From positions 3,104,001 through 3,168,000 of the forward strand of contig OZ244170.1 in assembly GCA_965216565.1 (NCBI GenBank): a stretch of 64,000 bases of DNA, written 5' to 3'. Shown one piece after another: positions 1,757 to 9,594 of the stretch. Below the pieces are notes generated by a model. That model was not told the origin of the DNA. It did not search any database and worked only from the letters and a program-made list of their open reading frames with translations. Every line of letters starts with the position of its first letter. The first letter of the stretch is position 1. The position numbers were made by a program, and so were the translations under genes. This DNA comes from Bythopirellula sp. Lineage in GTDB: Bacteria; Planctomycetota; Planctomycetia; Pirellulales; Lacipirellulaceae.

Positions 1757-1785
1757 TTGCAATCTAAGAGTTGCACCTCTATAGT
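1757..1785 (+). promoter_or_regulatory. Putative sigma70 promoter for the large PEP-CTERM gene
   Basis: TTGCAA-17 nt-TATAGT. Confidence 0.55.
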
Positions 1786-1932
1786 ATAGGTAGCGGGCAC
1801 CGCTTTTTGAGCTTGAATAGGTACCTTCCCCATCATGCGGACCGCCGCTTGAAATTGGGAGCGCAATGTTTCCGGCGAAACTGCACAAGTTTCATTTTCA
1901 CTGACCGCCTACATTCGGCAGAAGACAGCCTC

Positions 1933-4560
1933 ATGAAAAAGACTGATCTTGTTTCACTCTTCCCAATGCTCCTCGGCATTCTGCTCGTGAGCATTTCTAC
2001 CCTGCCGGTCTTTGGTCAATTCACTACAGTAATCAACATCCCACCTGATCCCGATCTGGGCAACGGCCAATCGATTGGGTCGGACACGCAGTTGAATCTC
2101 GGCGCGGGCGGATCGATCGGTTCGACGTTTGCCGCCGGTGCGACCGATGGCAGCAGCACGAATGTCGAAGTGAATATTTCTGGCGGCACCGTTGGCAACT
2201 CCTTCCGATCGTTCGGAGGAAGCACGGTCAACATTTCGGGAGGCGCTCTGGGAAATTCGTTCCGCGCCTTTAGCGGGAGTACCGTCAGGGTTTCGGGGGG
2301 CACACTCGGCGATAGTCTTGTGATTTCTGCGGGCTCAGATTTCGAAGTCTCGGGAGGAACCGTAGGTGATGACCCCGTGCTGTTTGTCAATGCGGTTCTT
2401 GACATGACAGGCGGTTCAATTGGCAATAACTTGGAGACTCGCAACAACAGCGCGGTCAACATCTCGGGAGGACACATTGGTACCGGTGCCGGTGGCCCGC
2501 GAACTAACTGGGATGTCTCAGGTGGGTTTGTCGACACCGATCTTCTCTTAAACCTAAACAGTTCTCTTGATTTGTCGGGAGGCTCGGTCGGCCATGGACT
2601 GACGCTCTCCAGCAACAGCGAAGTGAACTTGCTCGGCGACGATTTTTTTCTCGACGGCGTTCCCATCAACATCCCTGGCAGCACGCTACCATTCAATCTG
2701 CCGGCGGGAGCAATCTTGAGCGGCACTCTCTCCGATGGCGTCTCATTTACCCTTTCCACCGATCACAACGACGTGCTTCCCGATGGCACGATCACGCTTG
2801 TTCCAACGCCCATTGTGGTTACCGGGCCGCCCCTCATCACCCTTCCCGCGGACCCCGTGCCCGGCGGAGTGGGGGCGGGGCAGACGCTTGAAGTCACGAG
2901 CGGAACTGACCTACGTAACGATTTCGACGCGGGACCGGGCAGTACGGTCAACACCACCAATAGCAATGTTGGTGCTTGGTTCCAATCGGTAGGATCCAAT
3001 GTGAACGTCTCCGGCGGTTCCGTGGGGGACGATTTCCTGGCCATTCGTAGCAGTTCGGTCGACATCGCTAATTCTGCGGTCGGCGAGCGATTCCGCTCAC
3101 TCGAACAAAGCGACATCACCATCACCAACAGTCCTATCGGCGACAATTTTACAGCAGCCGGAGGGAGCACGGTAAATCTAAGCGGGACGACGGGGGGACG
3201 GGCTTTCCGACTCACCGAGAACAGCGTGCTGAACATCGATGGTAATGGTCAGGTTGCCACGCAAGGGTCATTCTCCGATGCGTTTCTGGCATCGGGCGGT
3301 AGCGAAGTGAATCTCAATAGTGGCAATATTGGCAACAACGCCGAGATTACAGGTAGCGGCACCACGCTCAATATTAATGGCGGGTCAATCGGGAGTTCTT
3401 TCGATGCAACGGACGGTAGTATTGTAAATCTCACTACAGGATCGATTGGTGGAGTAAGAGGAACCGATAGTACAATAAATATTGATGGAGGAACTGCTGG
3501 CGGAGTAAGTGGAAACCTTCTCAATCTGACGGATGGATCAATTGAATTAGCAGACGTCGAGACGTTAAACATGTCCGGAGGAACAATTGGCCCTGAAAGC
3601 CAGATCAGAACAGAAGCAAACCTGTCTGGCGGTTCCATCGGTCGACAATTAGAAGTAGACAGCGGAGCAGAACTAAACATCTTCGGCGGCGAGTTCATGC
3701 TCGATGGCGTAACGATTGCGGGGCTCGACAATCCTGGTGATTCGGCTGGCGTTACCCTGACTAGTCCGTTTCAATTGACTGGAATCCTGGAAGATGGGAC
3801 TCCGTTCGCGTTTCACGACCTTGATCGGGATCTAATCACCGATGCCAATATTACATTGTTCAGAACGGCACTCCCCGCCATTGGCCCCGCTTCTATTTCT
3901 CTTCCTACTGACCCCGTACCCGACGGTCTACGCGATGGTCAAACTTTGACGATCGAGGCGGGTGGTTCCACGGGAGAGATATTTAACGCCGGACCAGGGA
4001 GCACCGTGATCCTCGATGGTGGGGAAATTGGTGAAGATTTCGAAGCAGTCGGTGCCGACGTACAAATTCTCGACGGCATCGTTCAAGATCACTTCGATGC
4101 CTTGGCTGGCAGCACCGTACTGATTTCCGGCGGTGATATTCGAGAATTTTCTGCACTGAACGGCAGCATAGTTGAAGTCACTGGGGGATTAATCCGCACC
4201 AATAGCGACTTTAATGTCTCAGCTGGAGCCATGGTAACAATCGCTGGTGGAGTCTGGCCCGATACCATTTTTAACGATGATGTGTCTTTCAGTGCCGGTA
4301 GCGATGTACATATCTTCGGTAGAGGCGGTTTCCGCATTAATGGCGATCCAATTCCTGGGCTAGAGAATCCAGGCGATAGCATCCTGGTAGACGCGTCCAC
4401 CGTTGATTTTCTTCAAGCAATTCTGCGCGACGGCAATCCTTTCATCGTCAATGACGTGCAATCCGGCGCAATGATCCGGCTCACCCGCGTCGTCCCCGAA
4501 CCTGGGTCGATTGTACTCCTACTCACCGCCTCGCTGGCCATTGTTAGCCGACGGCGTTAG
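1933..4560 (+). CDS. Large PEP-CTERM protein with Gly/Ser/Asn-rich beta-helix-like repeats
   Basis: ATG 1933 gives a signal peptide; ~19-aa repeats such as GGTVGNSFRSFGGSTVNIS; VPEP-TM-RRR tail. Confidence 0.9.
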   Translation: MKKTDLVSLFPMLLGILLVSISTLPVFGQFTTVINIPPDPDLGNGQSIGSDTQLNLGAGGSIGSTFAAGATDGSSTNVEVNISGGTVGNSFRSFGGSTVNISGGALGNSFRAFSGSTVRVSGGTLGDSLVISAGSDFEVSGGTVGDDPVLFVNAVLDMTGGSIGNNLETRNNSAVNISGGHIGTGAGGPRTNWDVSGGFVDTDLLLNLNSSLDLSGGSVGHGLTLSSNSEVNLLGDDFFLDGVPINIPGSTLPFNLPAGAILSGTLSDGVSFTLSTDHNDVLPDGTITLVPTPIVVTGPPLITLPADPVPGGVGAGQTLEVTSGTDLRNDFDAGPGSTVNTTNSNVGAWFQSVGSNVNVSGGSVGDDFLAIRSSSVDIANSAVGERFRSLEQSDITITNSPIGDNFTAAGGSTVNLSGTTGGRAFRLTENSVLNIDGNGQVATQGSFSDAFLASGGSEVNLNSGNIGNNAEITGSGTTLNINGGSIGSSFDATDGSIVNLTTGSIGGVRGTDSTINIDGGTAGGVSGNLLNLTDGSIELADVETLNMSGGTIGPESQIRTEANLSGGSIGRQLEVDSGAELNIFGGEFMLDGVTIAGLDNPGDSAGVTLTSPFQLTGILEDGTPFAFHDLDRDLITDANITLFRTALPAIGPASISLPTDPVPDGLRDGQTLTIEAGGSTGEIFNAGPGSTVILDGGEIGEDFEAVGADVQILDGIVQDHFDALAGSTVLISGGDIREFSALNGSIVEVTGGLIRTNSDFNVSAGAMVTIAGGVWPDTIFNDDVSFSAGSDVHIFGRGGFRINGDPIPGLENPGDSILVDASTVDFLQAILRDGNPFIVNDVQSGAMIRLTRVVPEPGSIVLLLTASLAIVSRRR

Positions 4561-4698
4561 ATGCGAATCTGTGTGTACAAGCGGCCACGTTACTCAGGCG
4601 GAGGTACCGTCACCTGCACTAGTTCCCCTTCCACGGGGCTGTGGCACCGGTTTTCGCTGCAGGCCATGTACGTGAGTTTGACGTTCAGGCTTGTCGGC
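4493..4698. repeat. Direct repeat copy 2 (~206 bp)
   Basis: Matches 1338..1544. Confidence 0.97.
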
Positions 4699-5216
4699 TC
4701 CTGCGGCGGAGTTTGAAAGCGAACCGGCAGATAGAGCGCGACCGGTCCGTCTGGATAGATGGGAAAAGTTAAATTCAAAACTTCTTCCACGTGGATCATT
4801 TCTGGCTTGTCGGCGATCAGCGCGTCGACATCCGCAATCAAATCCGAGGGCTCCAGTTCGATGAGCGTAGGACGCCCCAAACCGCTGATGCCCTCTTTCG
4901 GGAGAGTCTTGCTGTACAGGTGATAACCGGCATCGTCGGGTGTGAAGACGCCGCGGATAACGAGTTGCCCCTCGTCACTCCACGCCGCACTAAGTTCCAC
5001 CGCAACACGTCCGCCATCGTCGTGATGCGCATCGGCAATCGGCTCATAGTCTAAACTGGCAAGCGGATTGCCGGAAACCTTCGCGGGCTCAGCCTTCACC
5101 TCCGCCGGTGCGGAGTCCTGGACGTCAGACTCGCTGCAGCCGACCACCGTCGATCCAAGTAGCATTCCAAGAACGAGTATGCTACGGCACCTTTTAATTC
5201 CTCTGAACTCAACCAA
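4590..5216 (-). CDS. Lipoprotein with DsbD N-terminal (DsbD-alpha)-like Ig-fold redox domain
   Basis: GAGGAG RBS before TTG 5216; lipobox-like VVGC; GYHLYS and YMACSENRCHSP resemble DsbD-alpha GYYLY and YQGC....CYPP. Confidence 0.72.
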   Translation of the reverse strand: MVEFRGIKRCRSILVLGMLLGSTVVGCSESDVQDSAPAEVKAEPAKVSGNPLASLDYEPIADAHHDDGGRVAVELSAAWSDEGQLVIRGVFTPDDAGYHLYSKTLPKEGISGLGRPTLIELEPSDLIADVDALIADKPEMIHVEEVLNLTFPIYPDGPVALYLPVRFQTPPQEPTSLNVKLTYMACSENRCHSPVEGELVQVTVPPPE

Positions 5217-5335
5217 TGAATTCTCCTCTATCTTTTCGCGTTTGCGTTTAATATCTGATGTCAATTCTGGTTCAACCCGCGGCTAGCGCCGTCGGCTCAA
5301 GAGGTATTCCGGGTTGATGGTGGTGCAAGCCTCCC

Positions 5336-6799
5336 CTACTTTTGCAAATAAAGCCAAACAAAACCAGTGGACCGCGAATCCATGAATTCCGATCGCTCGC
5401 CGTAAAGCGTGCTGATTTCTTGCTGGGCCTGCTGCAGTTCGGAAACCTCGGGAGGCTCGTCCTGCGCTGCCGTATCATCCATTCCCAACACCGAGAGCAG
5501 CCATTTGCCAACTGCCGAGCCATCGGCCCCTTCGGCCTCCGCATTGGGATCGTCCTCGACCGTTTGCTCCGCGGCGGTCTGCTCTTGCTCCTCTTGGGCT
5601 GCCTCCATCAGTTCGGTCATTCTCGTCGAAACCTCTTGCACCTTCTTATTCCACTCGGCGAACTTTTCTTCGTACTCGGCCACCGAGAGTCCATTGGCGG
5701 GAGAAACGAGCGTTACCGAATCGCCCACCAACAAATCGAGCTTGCCATCGTCGTTGACGTCGTCCACCCAAATGCGTGTCGATGTCTTGGGGCCTTCTAG
5801 ATCGTCTTCGTCGAGCAGATTGTTGGAGGCGACGCGAGGCTCAGCAGGGATCAACGGCTCGAACGCCTCTAACTCTGGAATTTCTCCAGCGTCTGCCACA
5901 TTCTCGGCCCACTGCACACCCCCGTTACTGGAACCGCTGAGCAGATCAAGATCGCCATCGTTGTCCCAATCCACGATAAACGGATCGCTATGGTGGCCCG
6001 CTATCTTCAGCATTTCGTCACCCAGCAAAATCGATTCCGGCTGCGGTTGAAAAACGCCTTCACCTTCACCGTAAAACACATAGAAACTACCGCCGAAATT
6101 TCCAACCACTAGATCAAGATCGCCATCGGCATCCCAATCAACGGCCGTCGGCCGCGTGCAGATGTTTTCTAAACTGGTGCCGCCATACTGCTCGGCATCG
6201 TCGCCAGGGGGAATAATCAGCGGCTCGCCATCGGAGACATTCAAAGCCTCCGCGGGTTGGAACGTTCCGTCCGGCTGTCCCCATAACACTTGAAACAGCC
6301 CCGCCATCGATTGCCCCATTCTCGAATAAGAACCGGACAGGATATCTAAATTACCGTCCTCGTTGAGATCCACCAACTGTGGAGTAGAGCTCGTGCATCA
6401 CCACACGCCCGGCACTTCCGCCACTTCGTCGCCGGCCATCAGCCATTCGCCCTCGGCGAGTTGCATGTCGCCTTGGTTCTTGAAAACCTGAATCTTCCCT
6501 TGGGCGAATTGCCCGACGAGCAAATCCTTCTTGCCATCGTTATTGATGTCGGCCCAACAGGGGGACGCATAACCGGGCGATTCAACCGACACCGGTCCCG
6601 AGGGAGACTCAAGCTGACGCGGCACTTCAAACTCGAAGTTCACCAACCGCGTGCTGGCATCTGCCGAGGTTGTGGTCACGTCAGACGACGCGGTAGAAGT
6701 CGGCGCCGGGGCCTGGTTGGAACAACCCCCGACCAGGAGGGTCAGCAGAGGCAGGAGTGCCGCTAGAAGATTAACTCGACTGAATAAAGGGTGGCTCAC
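5336..6799 (-). CDS. FG-GAP/VCBS-repeat lipoprotein, candidate selenoprotein (in-frame TGA at 6398..6400)
   Basis: ORFs 6398..6859 and 5336..6376 are in the same frame and separated by one TGA. Read-through gives EVPGVW-U-CTSSTPQLVDLNEDG. Five Dx[DN]xDG repeats; GGAG RBS + GTG 6799; lipobox-like VGGC. Confidence 0.72.
6365..6392 (-). promoter_or_regulatory. Candidate bacterial SECIS hairpin
   Basis: UCCAC/GUGGA stem with AGUUG loop beginning 19 nt after the UGA; possible GAG/CUC lower stem. Confidence 0.55.
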
Positions 6800-7038
6800 A
6801 ATCTGTTTCTCCCAAGGAGATGCTCTGTGATTCCTTTTAAAACGATCAATCAACATCATTCAAATGAGGCATTCGAACAAATTCTAGTTTAACATTTTGC
6901 ATCGCAATTCGTACACCCGGGGAGAAAACTTGGTTGTTTTCACAGGCCGGAGTCTGGTAAAACCGCAGTGCCAGGCCGCACCGGCTTTCTGCCAGCAATA
7001 CCAACCTCACGACCTCCACCGGGACAACTACCAACACG

Positions 7039-9594
7039 ATGCCACGAATCTTTTCCGTTTCACTGGTGGTCTTACATTTGCTAGCTGGCGGCGCTGGGCA
7101 CTCGCTCGCCGAGGATAGCATCCACATCCGAGCCAACCAGATTGGCTACCGCACGGACGAGCGCAAAGTTGCCATTGCCTTTTCGCACGAACCGGTCGAA
7201 GGGAGTTTTTCTCTCTTGGAGGTGCCGACCAAAAAGGTTGTGTTCACAGCGGAACTCACGCCCGCGTCCGCCCCGGGTTGGGGAACGTTCGCACATCATT
7301 ATCGGCTCGATTTCAGCAAACAGACGAAGCCGGGCCGATACGAACTGCGGATCGACGACTCTGGGGAAACTTCGCGATCCTTGACTATCGGCGACGATGC
7401 CTATGGCGATTACGTCGAAGATCTCCTGCGGTTCATGCGCCAACAGCGGTGCGGATACAACCCGGTGCTCGATATGGTTTGCCACCAGCGCGACGGCAGG
7501 ACCGCCTTCGGACCGAAACCAGCCGACACGTTTGTCGATGCCAGCGGTGGTTGGCACGATGCGGGCGACCAATTGAAATACCTTCTCACCGGCAGCAACG
7601 CCACCGCCCGGATGCTGTTGGCCTACGAACTAGAGCCCACCAAGTTCGACGATCGCACCGACCGCCTGGGCCATCCGCTTCCCAATGGTGTGCCCGACGT
7701 GCTGGACGAGGCCCGTTGGGGATTGGATTGGATCTTCAAGCTGCACCCCAGCCCCAAGGAACTCTACCACCAGGTGGCCGACGATCGCGATCACAACGAA
7801 TGGAAGATGCCCGACCGCGACACCTCCGACTATGGCTGGGGGCCCAACAGCTATCGAGTGGTCTATGCCGCGGACGGCAAACCGCAGGGCCTGCGGAAAT
7901 ATAAAAGCGAATCCACCGGCCTGGCCAACCTCGCTGGGCGCTGCGCCGCGGCCATGGCCCAGGCGCATCGAATCTGGCAGCGCGATCTGGACGATCCGCT
8001 GTTTGCCGCGCGCTGCCTGCAGGCGGCCCGCGAACTCTATGCGTTGGGCAAGTCGCACGAAGGCGTCCAGCAGGGCAACTCCTATGGCGCTCCCTACCGC
8101 TACGCCGAGACCACTTGGGCCGACGACATGGAGTGGGCCGCCGCGGAACTCTTTGCCGCCACCGGCGAGGATACCTATCGCAACGATGCCATTCGCTATG
8201 CTCGGCTGGCGGCAGACACTTCTTGGATGCCACTGGAAACCGCCGGCCACTATCAATACTATCCCTTCGTCAACGTCGGACACTTCGCGCTCTACCCACA
8301 TGTCGATGCCACACTGCAGCAGGAATTAGCCGGCTACTACCGCGCCGGCATCGAGGCCACCTTGGCCCGCGCCCAAAATAATGCCTTTGGCATTGGCGTG
8401 CCATTCATCTGGTGTTCCAACAACCTGACGACCGCGCTCGTAACGCAGCTCTTGCTCTACGAGCGGATGACGGGCGACCGGCAGTACCACGACCACCTGC
8501 TCGCCCAGCGCGATTGGCTCTTCGGCCGTAATCCCTGGGGGACTACCATGTTCACCGAAATCCCCCGCGATGGCGAATTCCCCGAGGACGTGCACACCGC
8601 TATCTGGAAACTCACCCGGCGTGCCGTACCGGGAGGGCTCATTGATGGTCCCGTGTATACCAAGGTTTACGACAGCCTGTTGGGACTCCATCTAGAAAAC
8701 GACGACGAGTTCGCGGCGTTCCAAAACAAACACGTCGTCTATCACGACGACATCGGCGACTACTCCACCAACGAACCAACGATGGACGGCACCGCGGGGG
8801 CGATCGCCATGATGGCCCACTTTGGCACAACGCCCGCTAATGCCCGCCGAAGCGTTGCGCGTCGCACCCTGGAACCACCCGCCAATCTACTGCTCGACCA
8901 CGGCGCCATTCGCCGCGGTTCGCCGGCCGACAAACGCCTCGCCCTGCTGTTCACTGCCGACAAGCACGTCGACGGCGCCAATCCCATTCTCGAAACTCTT
9001 ACCAAACACAAAGTGCCCGCCGCGTTTTTCCTCACCGGCAAATCACTCGACGCGCCCCACATGCGCGACTGGACGCGACAAGCACTCGCAGCGGGTCACT
9101 ACGTCGGCCCGCATTCCGACGGGCACTTGCTCTACGCCCCATGGGACGATCGGCAGCGGTCGCTTGTTTCCCAGGAACGTTTCCAAGCCGATCTCTATCG
9201 CAACCTGGCGGAGTTGGGCGAACTCGGTGCGGTGAAATCGCGGCCGATCTATTTCGTGCCGCCCTACGAATGGCACAATGCCCAGCACACCGCTTGGGCC
9301 AAGGAACTTGGCTGCCAGATGATCAACTTCACCTCCGGCAGCGGTTCGCAACGCGATTTCGCCCCGGAAGGTCACCAGGCATTTGTTCCCTCGGAAGAAC
9401 TGATCGAGGACATTTTAGAGCACGAACAGATCTCGAAACACGGACTCAACGGCCACCTGCTCTTGCTGCATCTCGGTACGACTCGAAAAGACAAAGTCTA
9501 CGCCCATCTCGGCAGATTGATCGAGGAGCTGTTGGCACGCGGTTATTCGATCGTGCGCGTTGATGAATTGCTCAGCGAAAGTAACACGCCGTAG
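7039..9594 (+). CDS. Secreted GH9 glycoside hydrolase (N-terminal Ig-like domain) fused to a C-terminal CE4/NodB polysaccharide deacetylase
   Basis: RANQIGY, GGWHDAGD and DYSTNEPT GH9 motifs; HSDGH, PPYE and LLLH CE4 motifs. Confidence 0.88.
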   Translation: MPRIFSVSLVVLHLLAGGAGHSLAEDSIHIRANQIGYRTDERKVAIAFSHEPVEGSFSLLEVPTKKVVFTAELTPASAPGWGTFAHHYRLDFSKQTKPGRYELRIDDSGETSRSLTIGDDAYGDYVEDLLRFMRQQRCGYNPVLDMVCHQRDGRTAFGPKPADTFVDASGGWHDAGDQLKYLLTGSNATARMLLAYELEPTKFDDRTDRLGHPLPNGVPDVLDEARWGLDWIFKLHPSPKELYHQVADDRDHNEWKMPDRDTSDYGWGPNSYRVVYAADGKPQGLRKYKSESTGLANLAGRCAAAMAQAHRIWQRDLDDPLFAARCLQAARELYALGKSHEGVQQGNSYGAPYRYAETTWADDMEWAAAELFAATGEDTYRNDAIRYARLAADTSWMPLETAGHYQYYPFVNVGHFALYPHVDATLQQELAGYYRAGIEATLARAQNNAFGIGVPFIWCSNNLTTALVTQLLLYERMTGDRQYHDHLLAQRDWLFGRNPWGTTMFTEIPRDGEFPEDVHTAIWKLTRRAVPGGLIDGPVYTKVYDSLLGLHLENDDEFAAFQNKHVVYHDDIGDYSTNEPTMDGTAGAIAMMAHFGTTPANARRSVARRTLEPPANLLLDHGAIRRGSPADKRLALLFTADKHVDGANPILETLTKHKVPAAFFLTGKSLDAPHMRDWTRQALAAGHYVGPHSDGHLLYAPWDDRQRSLVSQERFQADLYRNLAELGELGAVKSRPIYFVPPYEWHNAQHTAWAKELGCQMINFTSGSGSQRDFAPEGHQAFVPSEELIEDILEHEQISKHGLNGHLLLLHLGTTRKDKVYAHLGRLIEELLARGYSIVRVDELLSESNTP

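Follow-up and report, generated by a model that had tools for sequence, protein, structure and literature searches.

A UGA-interrupted FG-GAP propeller gene of Bythopirellula and its relatives as a probable new selenoprotein family with a vicinal Sec-Cys dyad

When two open reading frames (ORFs) share a frame and are parted by nothing more than a single TGA, is that codon the end of one gene or a selenocysteine (Sec) codon inside another? The question is raised by a locus in a 64,000-nucleotide (nt) stretch of the genome of Bythopirellula sp. (GenBank assembly GCA_965216565.1, contig OZ244170.1, positions 3,104,001 to 3,168,000); this whole stretch is referred to here as the window, and its numbering is used throughout. 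The two minus-strand ORFs at 6398..6859 (153 amino acids) and 5336..6376 (346 amino acids) lie in one frame, with a TGA at 6398-6400 between them. An earlier note, made from the sequence alone, proposed that they are a single gene for a hidden selenoprotein, and the ORF coordinates and translation bear out the arrangement that it described. Comparison with relatives indicates that the TGA is very probably a real Sec codon, and that the gene represents a selenoprotein family that is new, decoded by a recoding system that is already known.

The whole gene occupies 5336..6859 on the minus strand, as do all of its features described below, and ends at a TAG stop (5336-5338). Its frame has one internal TGA, and its translation matches the Pfam families FG-GAP_3 (PF13517; 84.5 bits, cut-off 26.9) and FG-GAP (PF01839; 40.4 bits, cut-off 22.1). 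The read-through junction reads ...EVPGVW-U-CTSSTPQLVDLNEDG, in which the candidate Sec is residue 154 (6398..6400) and its vicinal partner is Cys155 (6395..6397), numbered from the ATG at 6859. The choice of start codon is not settled: the product would have 507 amino acids from ATG 6859, and the 487 amino acids first reported hold if GTG 6799 is the start. With the latter start, inspection of the sequence by eye gives a signal peptide and lipobox at 6722..6799 (LLVGG-C46, Cys codon 6722-6724), and the protein is predicted to be lipid anchored in this genome. The designation of the protein as a lipoprotein suits this gene and its closest relative (in genome G017, lipobox IAG-C) but not the family at large, most other members of which have non-lipoprotein signal peptides. 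Full-length relatives align from the signal peptide through the C-terminal GFVWLYLQK, and the end of the protein here reads ...TGFVWLYLQK. The repeat register proposed in the earlier note stands as well: STPQLVD, just past the TGA, aligns with ASPCWAD, TRPTAVD, and SDPFIVD of other blades, to which a fifth blade adds TSTRIWVD.

Relatives reveal how this codon has been treated in evolution. In 61 related genomes, six of the top ten matches (all at 108 bits or more) have one in-frame TGA and the other four have none; where the TGA stands, the latter have the first residue of a Cys-Cys pair (VW-U-C, G-U-C, IY-C-C). A scan of a collection with one genome per species contributed 79 further loci, for a total of 109, of which 106 cover the site. 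At 70 bits or more there are 87 genome loci: 71 read TGA-TGY, 15 read TGY-TGY (3 of them duplicates, leaving 12 distinct), and 1 reads TCA-GGT (Ser-Gly). Of the 77 loci returned by a metagenome scan with a Cys-form query (P0003), 58 reach 70 bits and cover the site. TGA-TGY is read at 57 of them, and the lone Cys-Cys locus is the query's own. The earlier note had suggested asking whether homologues keep TGA at this position or carry Cys there, and they do one or the other (W-C-C, Y-C-C in the latter case). Because the sequences are related to one another, such counts overstate their independence, which weighs against taking them at face value. A quick tree built from 44 members requires no fewer than three changes between Sec and Cys.

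The family is widespread. Most members belong to Planctomycetota, with two loci labeled Verrucomicrobiota, and several subfamilies all keep the U-C pair: VPGVW-UC-TSSTPQ, G-UC-[VI]GFGPQ, VY-UC-IASSPQ, NW-UC-VGMSSQ, and NW-UC-IAIGPQ.

Several loci are unusual in other ways. In L081 (1380-2765, site at about 1833), TCA-GGT stands in place of TGA-TGY, each codon being one base off, the hairpin described below is intact, and SelA is present in the genome; this Ser-Gly may reflect a variant of the assembly or a dyad that was lost recently. In L062 (581-901), similarity to the family ends after TGA TGC ACT and the frame stops about five codons on. A misassembly, a deletion, or decay into a pseudogene may account for this, and the locus was excluded from hairpin and codon counts. 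A peptidoglycan-binding domain (PG_binding_1, 44-55 bits) is inserted between blades 2 and 3 in L058 (2917-4368), in L059 (620-2047), and also in L060, which belong to a subgroup of deep-sea Pirellulaceae. L037 and L073 are planctomycete-type genes in metagenome-assembled genomes (MAGs) labeled Bifidobacterium and Pseudomonadales, labels that are probably binning or labeling errors. Finally, L103 (3017-4762) is a distant FG-GAP relative (55 bits) with no dyad at the aligned site and with a DsbD_N-like domain (85.8 bits with a profile built here).

If the UGA is decoded as Sec, a selenocysteine insertion sequence (SECIS) is expected near it, and the earlier note had pointed to a UCCAC/GUGGA stem with an AGUUG loop. 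This core hairpin, at 6369..6383, is exactly as stated. With the UGA numbered 1-3, the stem pairs U18-C22 with G28-A32 (6383-6379 with 6373-6369) and encloses the loop at 6378-6374; the hairpin begins 14 nt after the UGA, and the UGA-to-loop spacing is 19 nt. In a gap-free alignment of 68 distinct TGA alleles, the five stem pairs are formed in 97.6% of 340 cells, 8 of them as G-U wobbles, and 8 cells are unpaired. As a control, the 3' arm was slid along the alignment, and pairing reached at most 49%. RNAalifold recovers four inner pairs of the same stem. Double changes number seven, at two pairs, with AU changed to GC six times and CG changed to UA once.

Could this hairpin be a mere by-product of conserved amino acids (T/S/G-P-Q-x-V-D), with Sec insertion, if any, proceeding via another signal? 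Two observations weigh on the side of this explanation: the peptide P-Q-[LFV]-V-D is conserved, and in the window, the minimum free energy (MFE) structure of the 48-nt segment (-10.7 kcal/mol, z = 0.08 versus shuffles) is an alternative fold that lacks the hairpin. Other properties of the hairpin count against Sec decoding more generally. The unconstrained MFE structure of the closest relative likewise differs from the hairpin. The core is short, with 5 bp and about -6.0 kcal/mol by itself. Covariation is modest too, resting on 7 cells at 2 pairs because most stem columns are nearly invariant. Since the hairpin is not special in the window alone, its weight comes from the comparison with relatives.

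That comparison makes the by-product explanation highly improbable, because third-codon positions in the stem are fixed against the genes' own usage. In 70 TGA genes, the Pro codon in the stem is CCA in 52 of 62 cases (10% elsewhere in the same genes), and the Val codon is GTG in 62 of 62 (33% elsewhere); in 12 Cys genes, the corresponding counts are 1 of 9 and 1 of 8. The codon before Pro ends in U in 66 of the 70 TGA genes, with Thr encoded by ACT in 31 of 33 cases against a background of 11%; for the Cys genes, no count was made here (Gln, CAG/CAA). Each Val-to-Ala change (GUG to GCG) is joined by a synonymous CCA-to-CCG change. Cys alleles with similar peptides choose different codons: the lone close Cys allele for which DNA is available reads ACG CCG CTA CTC GTG, with preferred codons and the loop G lost, and the hairpin is missing from Cys alleles. 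Synonymous codons are thus frozen so that the hairpin forms in TGA alleles only, and together with the compensatory changes, this answers favorably the question of covariation that the earlier note had raised.

The hairpin can also be compared with published criteria for the bacterial SECIS (bSECIS), which are a loop of 3-9 nt, an upper stem of 4-16 bp, a UGA-to-loop spacing of 16-37 nt, a G in the first two loop positions (G[G/U]), and an MFE of at most -7.5 kcal/mol (PMC13188914, section 5). The hairpin fits these: a 5-bp stem carries a 5-nt loop whose second and third positions are G and U, and 19 nt separate this loop from the UGA. With the hairpin enforced in the window, folds of 48-60 nt have energies of -8.9 to -10.5 kcal/mol; given the energy of the core alone, the threshold is therefore reached only with the variable lower stem. 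Across the alleles, the hairpin tops the 48-nt MFE structure in 53 of 68, often above a longer lower stem.

A genome that reads UGA as Sec needs the machinery to do so. This genome is a single 5.21-Mb contig, in which the sel genes are clustered within about 6 kb at 683.7-689.6 kb: selA (420 bits), a SelB wing domain adjoining selA, selD (276 bits), and a tRNA-SeC with anticodon tca. All of the components that the earlier note had named are therefore present. All matches to formate dehydrogenase alpha (FdhA) in this genome score under the family cut-off, and their frames are free of stops (G000:C1:609709-611949 and genome-wide); the machinery must therefore serve other selenoproteins. A separate SelA-like paralogue (G000:C1:2949876-2950457) and its counterparts in several relatives match only the C-terminal half of the SelA model, at 74-107 bits, and this half-length paralogue is found in TGA-form and Cys-form genomes alike.

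Across the family, SelA goes with the TGA allele. Presence was taken as a match of at least 250 bits and was compared between 70 TGA-form and 12 Cys-form genomes. SelA is present in 65 of the 70 TGA-form genomes, two more have fragments at contig ends (130 and 116 bits), and none was found in the remaining three, which host L068, L111, and L092. Among the Cys-form genomes, SelA is present in 1 of 12; two have full-length matches of 178 and 208 bits, seven have none, and the remaining two have only the half-length paralogue, at 75-87 bits. We regard this co-occurrence as a strong trend rather than a formal test because many of the genomes are incomplete MAGs and many are related.

The same body of evidence bears on whether the TGA is simply a true stop, either in a pseudogene or between two genes coding for a 153-amino-acid lipoprotein and a 323- to 346-amino-acid cytoplasmic fragment. 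Standard gene calling does yield two ORFs, and the database entry for this genome is a 323-amino-acid call (P0002). Such splitting is the rule, as the earlier note had anticipated: of the best 120 database homologues, only 4 extend across the site, all of them Cys-Cys, and the other 116 start past it. The Val GTG of the hairpin 3' arm is the start of 100 of the 116 truncated entries; another 8 begin with the codon before it and 8 with a Met farther on. The source names of the homologues read 'hypothetical protein' or 'FG-GAP-like repeat' only. In the present gene, the ORF list used here starts the truncated ORF at the UUG in the SECIS loop (6374-6376); the GUG of the 3' arm, the start in 100 of the homologues, is at 6371-6373. 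Gene callers start in the hairpin, and its codons thus act as decoy start codons. Nevertheless, a true stop is very improbable, and even more so than a by-product hairpin. The stop is conserved at one codon in 128 loci of many genomes with the frame open on both sides; the downstream ORF would begin in the middle of a blade and without a signal peptide; the propeller needs both halves, with blade 1 upstream of the TGA and the C-terminal strand closing onto it; and the Sec genes go with the TGA form.

Finally, the codon was checked in the contigs of four public runs aligned to the gene, none of which has a change at 6398-6400. Runs X1 and X4 are one sample with 0 differences, which may be the source of this very DNA. 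Run X5, from a second study, has the entire gene of a variant strain on a single contig, with 32 differences over 1524 nt, and in run X6, from a third study, one piece spans 6263-6445 with 0 differences. That the TGA arose by an error of sequencing or assembly, or by a nonsense mutation that turned a Cys or Trp codon into a stop in this strain only, is extremely improbable. Nothing was found in favor of this, the contigs of three studies, that of the variant strain included, agree at this codon (the earlier note had named a sequencing error as something that would refute its claim), and orthologues elsewhere carry the same codon.

Four features by which bacterial selenoprotein genes are judged are thus found here: a conserved UGA aligned with Cys, Sec machinery, a bSECIS, and evolutionary support for its structure. 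In the decoding that we propose, SelB carrying Sec-tRNA(Sec) would be recruited by the in-frame hairpin at 6369-6383, and the ribosome would insert Sec154 at the UGA.

What kind of protein would carry this residue? An AlphaFold2 model built with 44 sequences has a mean predicted local distance difference test (pLDDT) score of 86.1 and a predicted template modeling (TM) score of 0.80, with pLDDT above 95 in the propeller part. VIA-align superimposes the model on five-bladed propellers of glycoside hydrolase (GH) families GH43, GH62, and GH32 with Z scores of 15-19 (best 19.2), over a range from residue 79 to residue 507 with about 250-255 residues aligned, at a root mean square deviation of 3.4-3.5 and 6-14% identity. 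Calcium-loop motifs of the form D-x-[DN]-x-[DN]-G lie at residues 104, 164, 241, 297, and 367, one per blade. This structural match therefore gives five blades, which cover residues 77-390 approximately (5690..6631). In Foldseek, seven-bladed FG-GAP proteins are matched weakly by the model (TM 0.22-0.38), and the family profile finds generic FG-GAP matches only among PDB sequences. After the blades, model secondary structure shows a helical insert (helices 393-435, 448-457, and 474-489; 5393..5683) with a low-complexity acidic stretch, and the alignment indicates that its length and sequence differ between relatives. The C-terminal strand (residues 493-504; 5348..5383), which contains GFVWLYLQK, closes the propeller in the model, and the structural alignments reach residue 507; its motif is kept in Sec forms and Cys forms alike, and W502 is invariant. 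Comparison and a confident model therefore indicate a single exported protein, an FG-GAP propeller of five blades that bears an invariant Sec-Cys dyad.

The dyad itself stands out in the 44-sequence alignment. Aside from scaffold residues of the repeats (Asp, Gly, Pro, Leu, and Asn) and W502, no columns but those of positions 154 and 155 are invariant, such that the predicted Sec154-Cys155 is the sole invariant residue pair outside the repeat scaffold. Other Cys and His residues ahead of blades (C101, C232, and H289/H290; HCC in Cys forms) are specific to subfamilies. In the model, the dyad lies within the 12-residue loop that precedes the innermost strand of blade 2. FG-GAP propellers of the integrin type have their 4-1 loops on the ligand-binding face, opposite the calcium hairpins; by analogy, the dyad would sit close to the central funnel, on the face that points away from the calcium loops. 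The claim of a Sec-Cys pair on a propeller loop has thus been sharpened to a pair on a five-bladed propeller, and its redox role is something that we infer, backed by linkage to DsbD-alpha-like domains.

A possible partner is suggested by the next gene. At 4590..5264, 72 nt past the selenoprotein stop and on the same strand, lies a gene for a predicted lipoprotein with a lipobox-like ..TVVG-C.. and a DsbD-alpha-like domain. The protein has a C-x4-C motif (YMACSENRCHSP), and its end reads ...LTYMACSENRCHSP... Among its 132 homologues at E <= 1e-5, the Pfam family DsbD_N (PF11412) is found on 22 of the best 120, and 25 of 32 aligned homologues match DsbD_N at E <= 0.01 (best 1.2e-7). C168 and C173 are invariant across these 32. 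A model of the protein has a pLDDT of 89.7, and Foldseek ranks 1-12 are all N-terminal domains of DsbD or ScsB, although the scores are moderate (E 4.4e-4 to 1.2e-3; TM, normalized to the target, 0.36-0.62). In this genome, a DsbD_TM protein is encoded elsewhere, and no second DsbD_N was found genome-wide.

Relatives link the same kind of domain to the propeller. In a scan of 20 long family members, DsbD_N is above its cut-off in 6, fused N-terminally in L097, L105, L114, and L089 and C-terminally in L087 and L098; in four more (L056 and, among Cys forms, L088, L011, and L010), the domain scores under the cut-off. Two profiles were built, one (A3) from the fused DsbD_N domains and one (A4) from the family of the downstream gene. 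With A3, a DsbD_N-like ORF is found directly downstream of seven Cys-form genes (97-113 bits), as is an N-terminal fusion in the TGA gene L112, and among the 22,415 ORFs of the present genome, the sole match is the ORF adjoining the selenoprotein gene (E 0.043). Conversely, A4 matches eight fused or adjacent DsbD_N-like domains of family members at E <= 1e-3. Altogether, 10 of 12 Cys-form loci are physically linked to a DsbD_N-like domain, versus 9 of 71 Sec-form loci (8 fusions and this window).

On the basis of this linkage, which would back a redox role, we lean toward a reading in which the dyad is a periplasmic selenenylsulfide redox center served by a DsbD-alpha-like partner. Sec154-Cys155 would cycle between a selenenylsulfide and a selenolate/thiol, as the catalytic center of a periplasmic oxidoreductase, and would exchange electrons with a DsbD-alpha-type immunoglobulin-fold domain carrying the C-x4-C motif. 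This partner domain would be encoded by the next gene (4590-5264) here and by fused or adjacent domains in relatives, and it would in turn be fed by the DsbD/CcdA-type membrane relay of the cell.

A number of results count against this redox scheme. The downstream protein scores 20.3, 20.9, and 21.1 bits against DsbD_N and does not reach the cut-off of 25, and a profile of its family finds no chain at E <= 1 among PDB sequences. In the closest relative, G017, no such gene adjoins the propeller gene; tblastn with the downstream ORF finds it at no other family locus; and clustering of 1096 flanking ORFs from 83 loci reveals no neighbor common to more than 4 TGA-form loci, with fusions in just 8 of 71. 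Also, the location of the dyad on the propeller comes from topology, and no catalytic residues but the dyad are conserved, and therefore the chemistry could be metal binding rather than redox turnover.

Metal binding is the main rival. Under it, Sec is inserted, but Sec-Cys binds a metalloid or a soft metal, such as Cu(I), Hg(II), or a species of arsenic or selenium, and the propeller would be a periplasmic metal-binding or detoxifying protein. ScsB is part of a copper-stress system, and its N-terminal domain (6c29) is among the best fold matches of the neighbor. Some subfamilies have extra Cys or His residues just ahead of other blades (ICTRP, HHSDP, and HCCP), which would suit a metal site. 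Metal-related selenoproteins with CU or UC pairs are also known, namely, CopZ-family GxUC, HgcA CU, MerB-like SaoL CU, and MbdU (PMC13188914, Table 1). However, the extra Cys and His residues vary across subfamilies and the dyad alone is invariant, and no metal-resistance genes are conserved nearby. DsbD-alpha-type domains, moreover, donate electrons to thiol-disulfide partners, which fits redox recycling of the dyad. We therefore consider metal binding rather unlikely, albeit more credible than the other alternatives considered here.

Taken together, Sec decoding, the propeller, the position of the dyad, and the redox mechanism make up what is, as a whole, the likely best explanation of this locus. 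A bolder proposal can be added, which is tentative: that these proteins are an undescribed extracytoplasmic selenoenzyme class, a five-bladed FG-GAP propeller whose entire catalytic apparatus would be a Sec-Cys selenenylsulfide at the mouth of the funnel, connected to a DsbD-type electron relay; that Sec frees the enzyme from a dedicated DsbD-alpha partner; and that the family helps to keep the Sec trait in planctomycetes without selenocysteine formate dehydrogenase. The idea that Sec frees the enzyme from its partner arises because of the linkage found at 10 of 12 Cys-Cys genes versus 9 of 71 Sec-Cys genes.

Other genes surround the locus. On the plus strand at 7039-9594 is a divergent 851-amino-acid gene with a GH9 glycoside hydrolase domain (268 bits) and CelD_N fused to a polysaccharide deacetylase (48.7 bits). 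A convergent 929-amino-acid gene of Gly/Ser-rich 'GGS.G' repeats, also on the plus strand, is located at 1771-4560; it has a weak C-terminal PEP-CTERM match of 16.5 bits, under its cut-off.

A widespread family of exported propellers with a vicinal Sec-Cys pair would extend bacterial selenium biology to a fold and a compartment of the cell that are new to it; selenoprotein catalogues contain mostly thioredoxin-fold proteins and metalloenzymes. It would also call for a correction of annotation, given that 116 of the best 120 database homologues are cut at the TGA and that most of them were started inside the SECIS hairpin. Furthermore, nature would have provided a Sec/Cys enzyme pair, with and without a DsbD-alpha partner, that asks what selenium gains in an oxidizing periplasm. 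The TGA-form relative L053 comes from a named strain whose genome is complete, Saltatorellus ferox Poly30, which may open the predictions to bench tests should it prove possible to grow this strain.

How does this gene compare with known systems? As a recoding unit, it resembles bacterial SelB/SECIS genes, of which E. coli fdhF is the prototype (PMC13188914, section 5). Likewise, those genes have an in-frame UGA, a stem-loop inside the ORF with G-U early in the loop, Cys homologues, and selA, selB, selC, and selD in the genome. The differences are that the core here is minimal (5 bp and a 5-nt loop) with a lower stem that varies between homologues, and that the host protein is no oxidoreductase of a known selenoprotein family. 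In agreement with the statement in the earlier note that no classical family could be recognized, Table 1 of a 2026 review, which has 119 prokaryotic selenoprotein families, has no FG-GAP or propeller entry, and the terms FG-GAP, propeller, Planctomyc, lipoprotein, and repeat have 0 occurrences in its main text (PMC13188914). An NCBIfam scan of the protein found no selenoprotein model and only XAC2610_fam at 21.2 bits, under its cut-off of 35. A literature search in a limited collection found no propeller or FG-GAP selenoprotein and no link between FG-GAP and DsbD.

The nearest published likeness found is in the work of Kim et al. (2016), whose S9 Table contains planctomycete 'ASPIC UnbV; FG-Gap' candidates, each with two gene calls split by an in-frame TGA (PMC4807772). 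The same table gives a SECIS from bSECISearch for most of the ASPIC/UnbV candidates, with Gly as the aligned residue in the nearest homologue, and it also has one 'hypothetical (C)' candidate for which no sequence is given there, so that it is not comparable. Both sets are planctomycete FG-GAP repeats split by a TGA, but in the protein here, Pfam finds no UnbV_ASPIC domain at E <= 0.1, the blades number five, and the U-C dyad aligns with C-C. CRTAC1 (9etn) matches the family through generic FG-GAP repeats only. More broadly, the seven-bladed FG-GAP propellers (integrin alpha, PVL lectin, CRTAC1, and ITFG2) share sequence repeats with D-x-D-x-D-G loops; the protein here is five-bladed in contrast, and none of them has a Sec/Cys dyad. 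The GH43, GH62, and GH32 propellers share the five-blade geometry; the fold alone is in common, these enzymes lack the dyad, and the protein is not assigned to the GH families.

The dyad and its proposed partner have parallels of their own. Sec stands beside Cys in the CU/UC selenoproteins CopZ-family GxUC, HgcA, SaoL, KCU-star, and MbdU, but their folds and families are unrelated, and none is listed as FG-GAP or beta-propeller (PMC13188914, Table 1). The vicinal Cys/Sec pair here is also reminiscent of a eukaryotic enzyme. Mammalian thioredoxin reductase has a C-terminal Gly-Cys-Sec-Gly center whose vicinal pair can close into a selenenylsulfide ring of eight members, and a second center, a dithiol, recycles it. 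Unlike that pair, the order here is Sec-Cys, the dyad is internal on a propeller loop rather than on a flexible C-terminal tail, and the protein is extracytoplasmic by prediction and has no flavin domain. For the neighbor, the best model matches are the DsbD alpha and ScsB N-terminal domains (PDB 1l6p, 1jpe, 6dnv, and 6c29), with which it shares paired Cys near the C terminus, and homologous domains are fused to the propeller family. It differs from them in that it is a stand-alone predicted lipoprotein rather than part of a DsbD polypeptide, with a C-x4-C motif and a sub-cut-off Pfam score, and its client would be a Sec-Cys propeller instead of a thioredoxin-fold protein.

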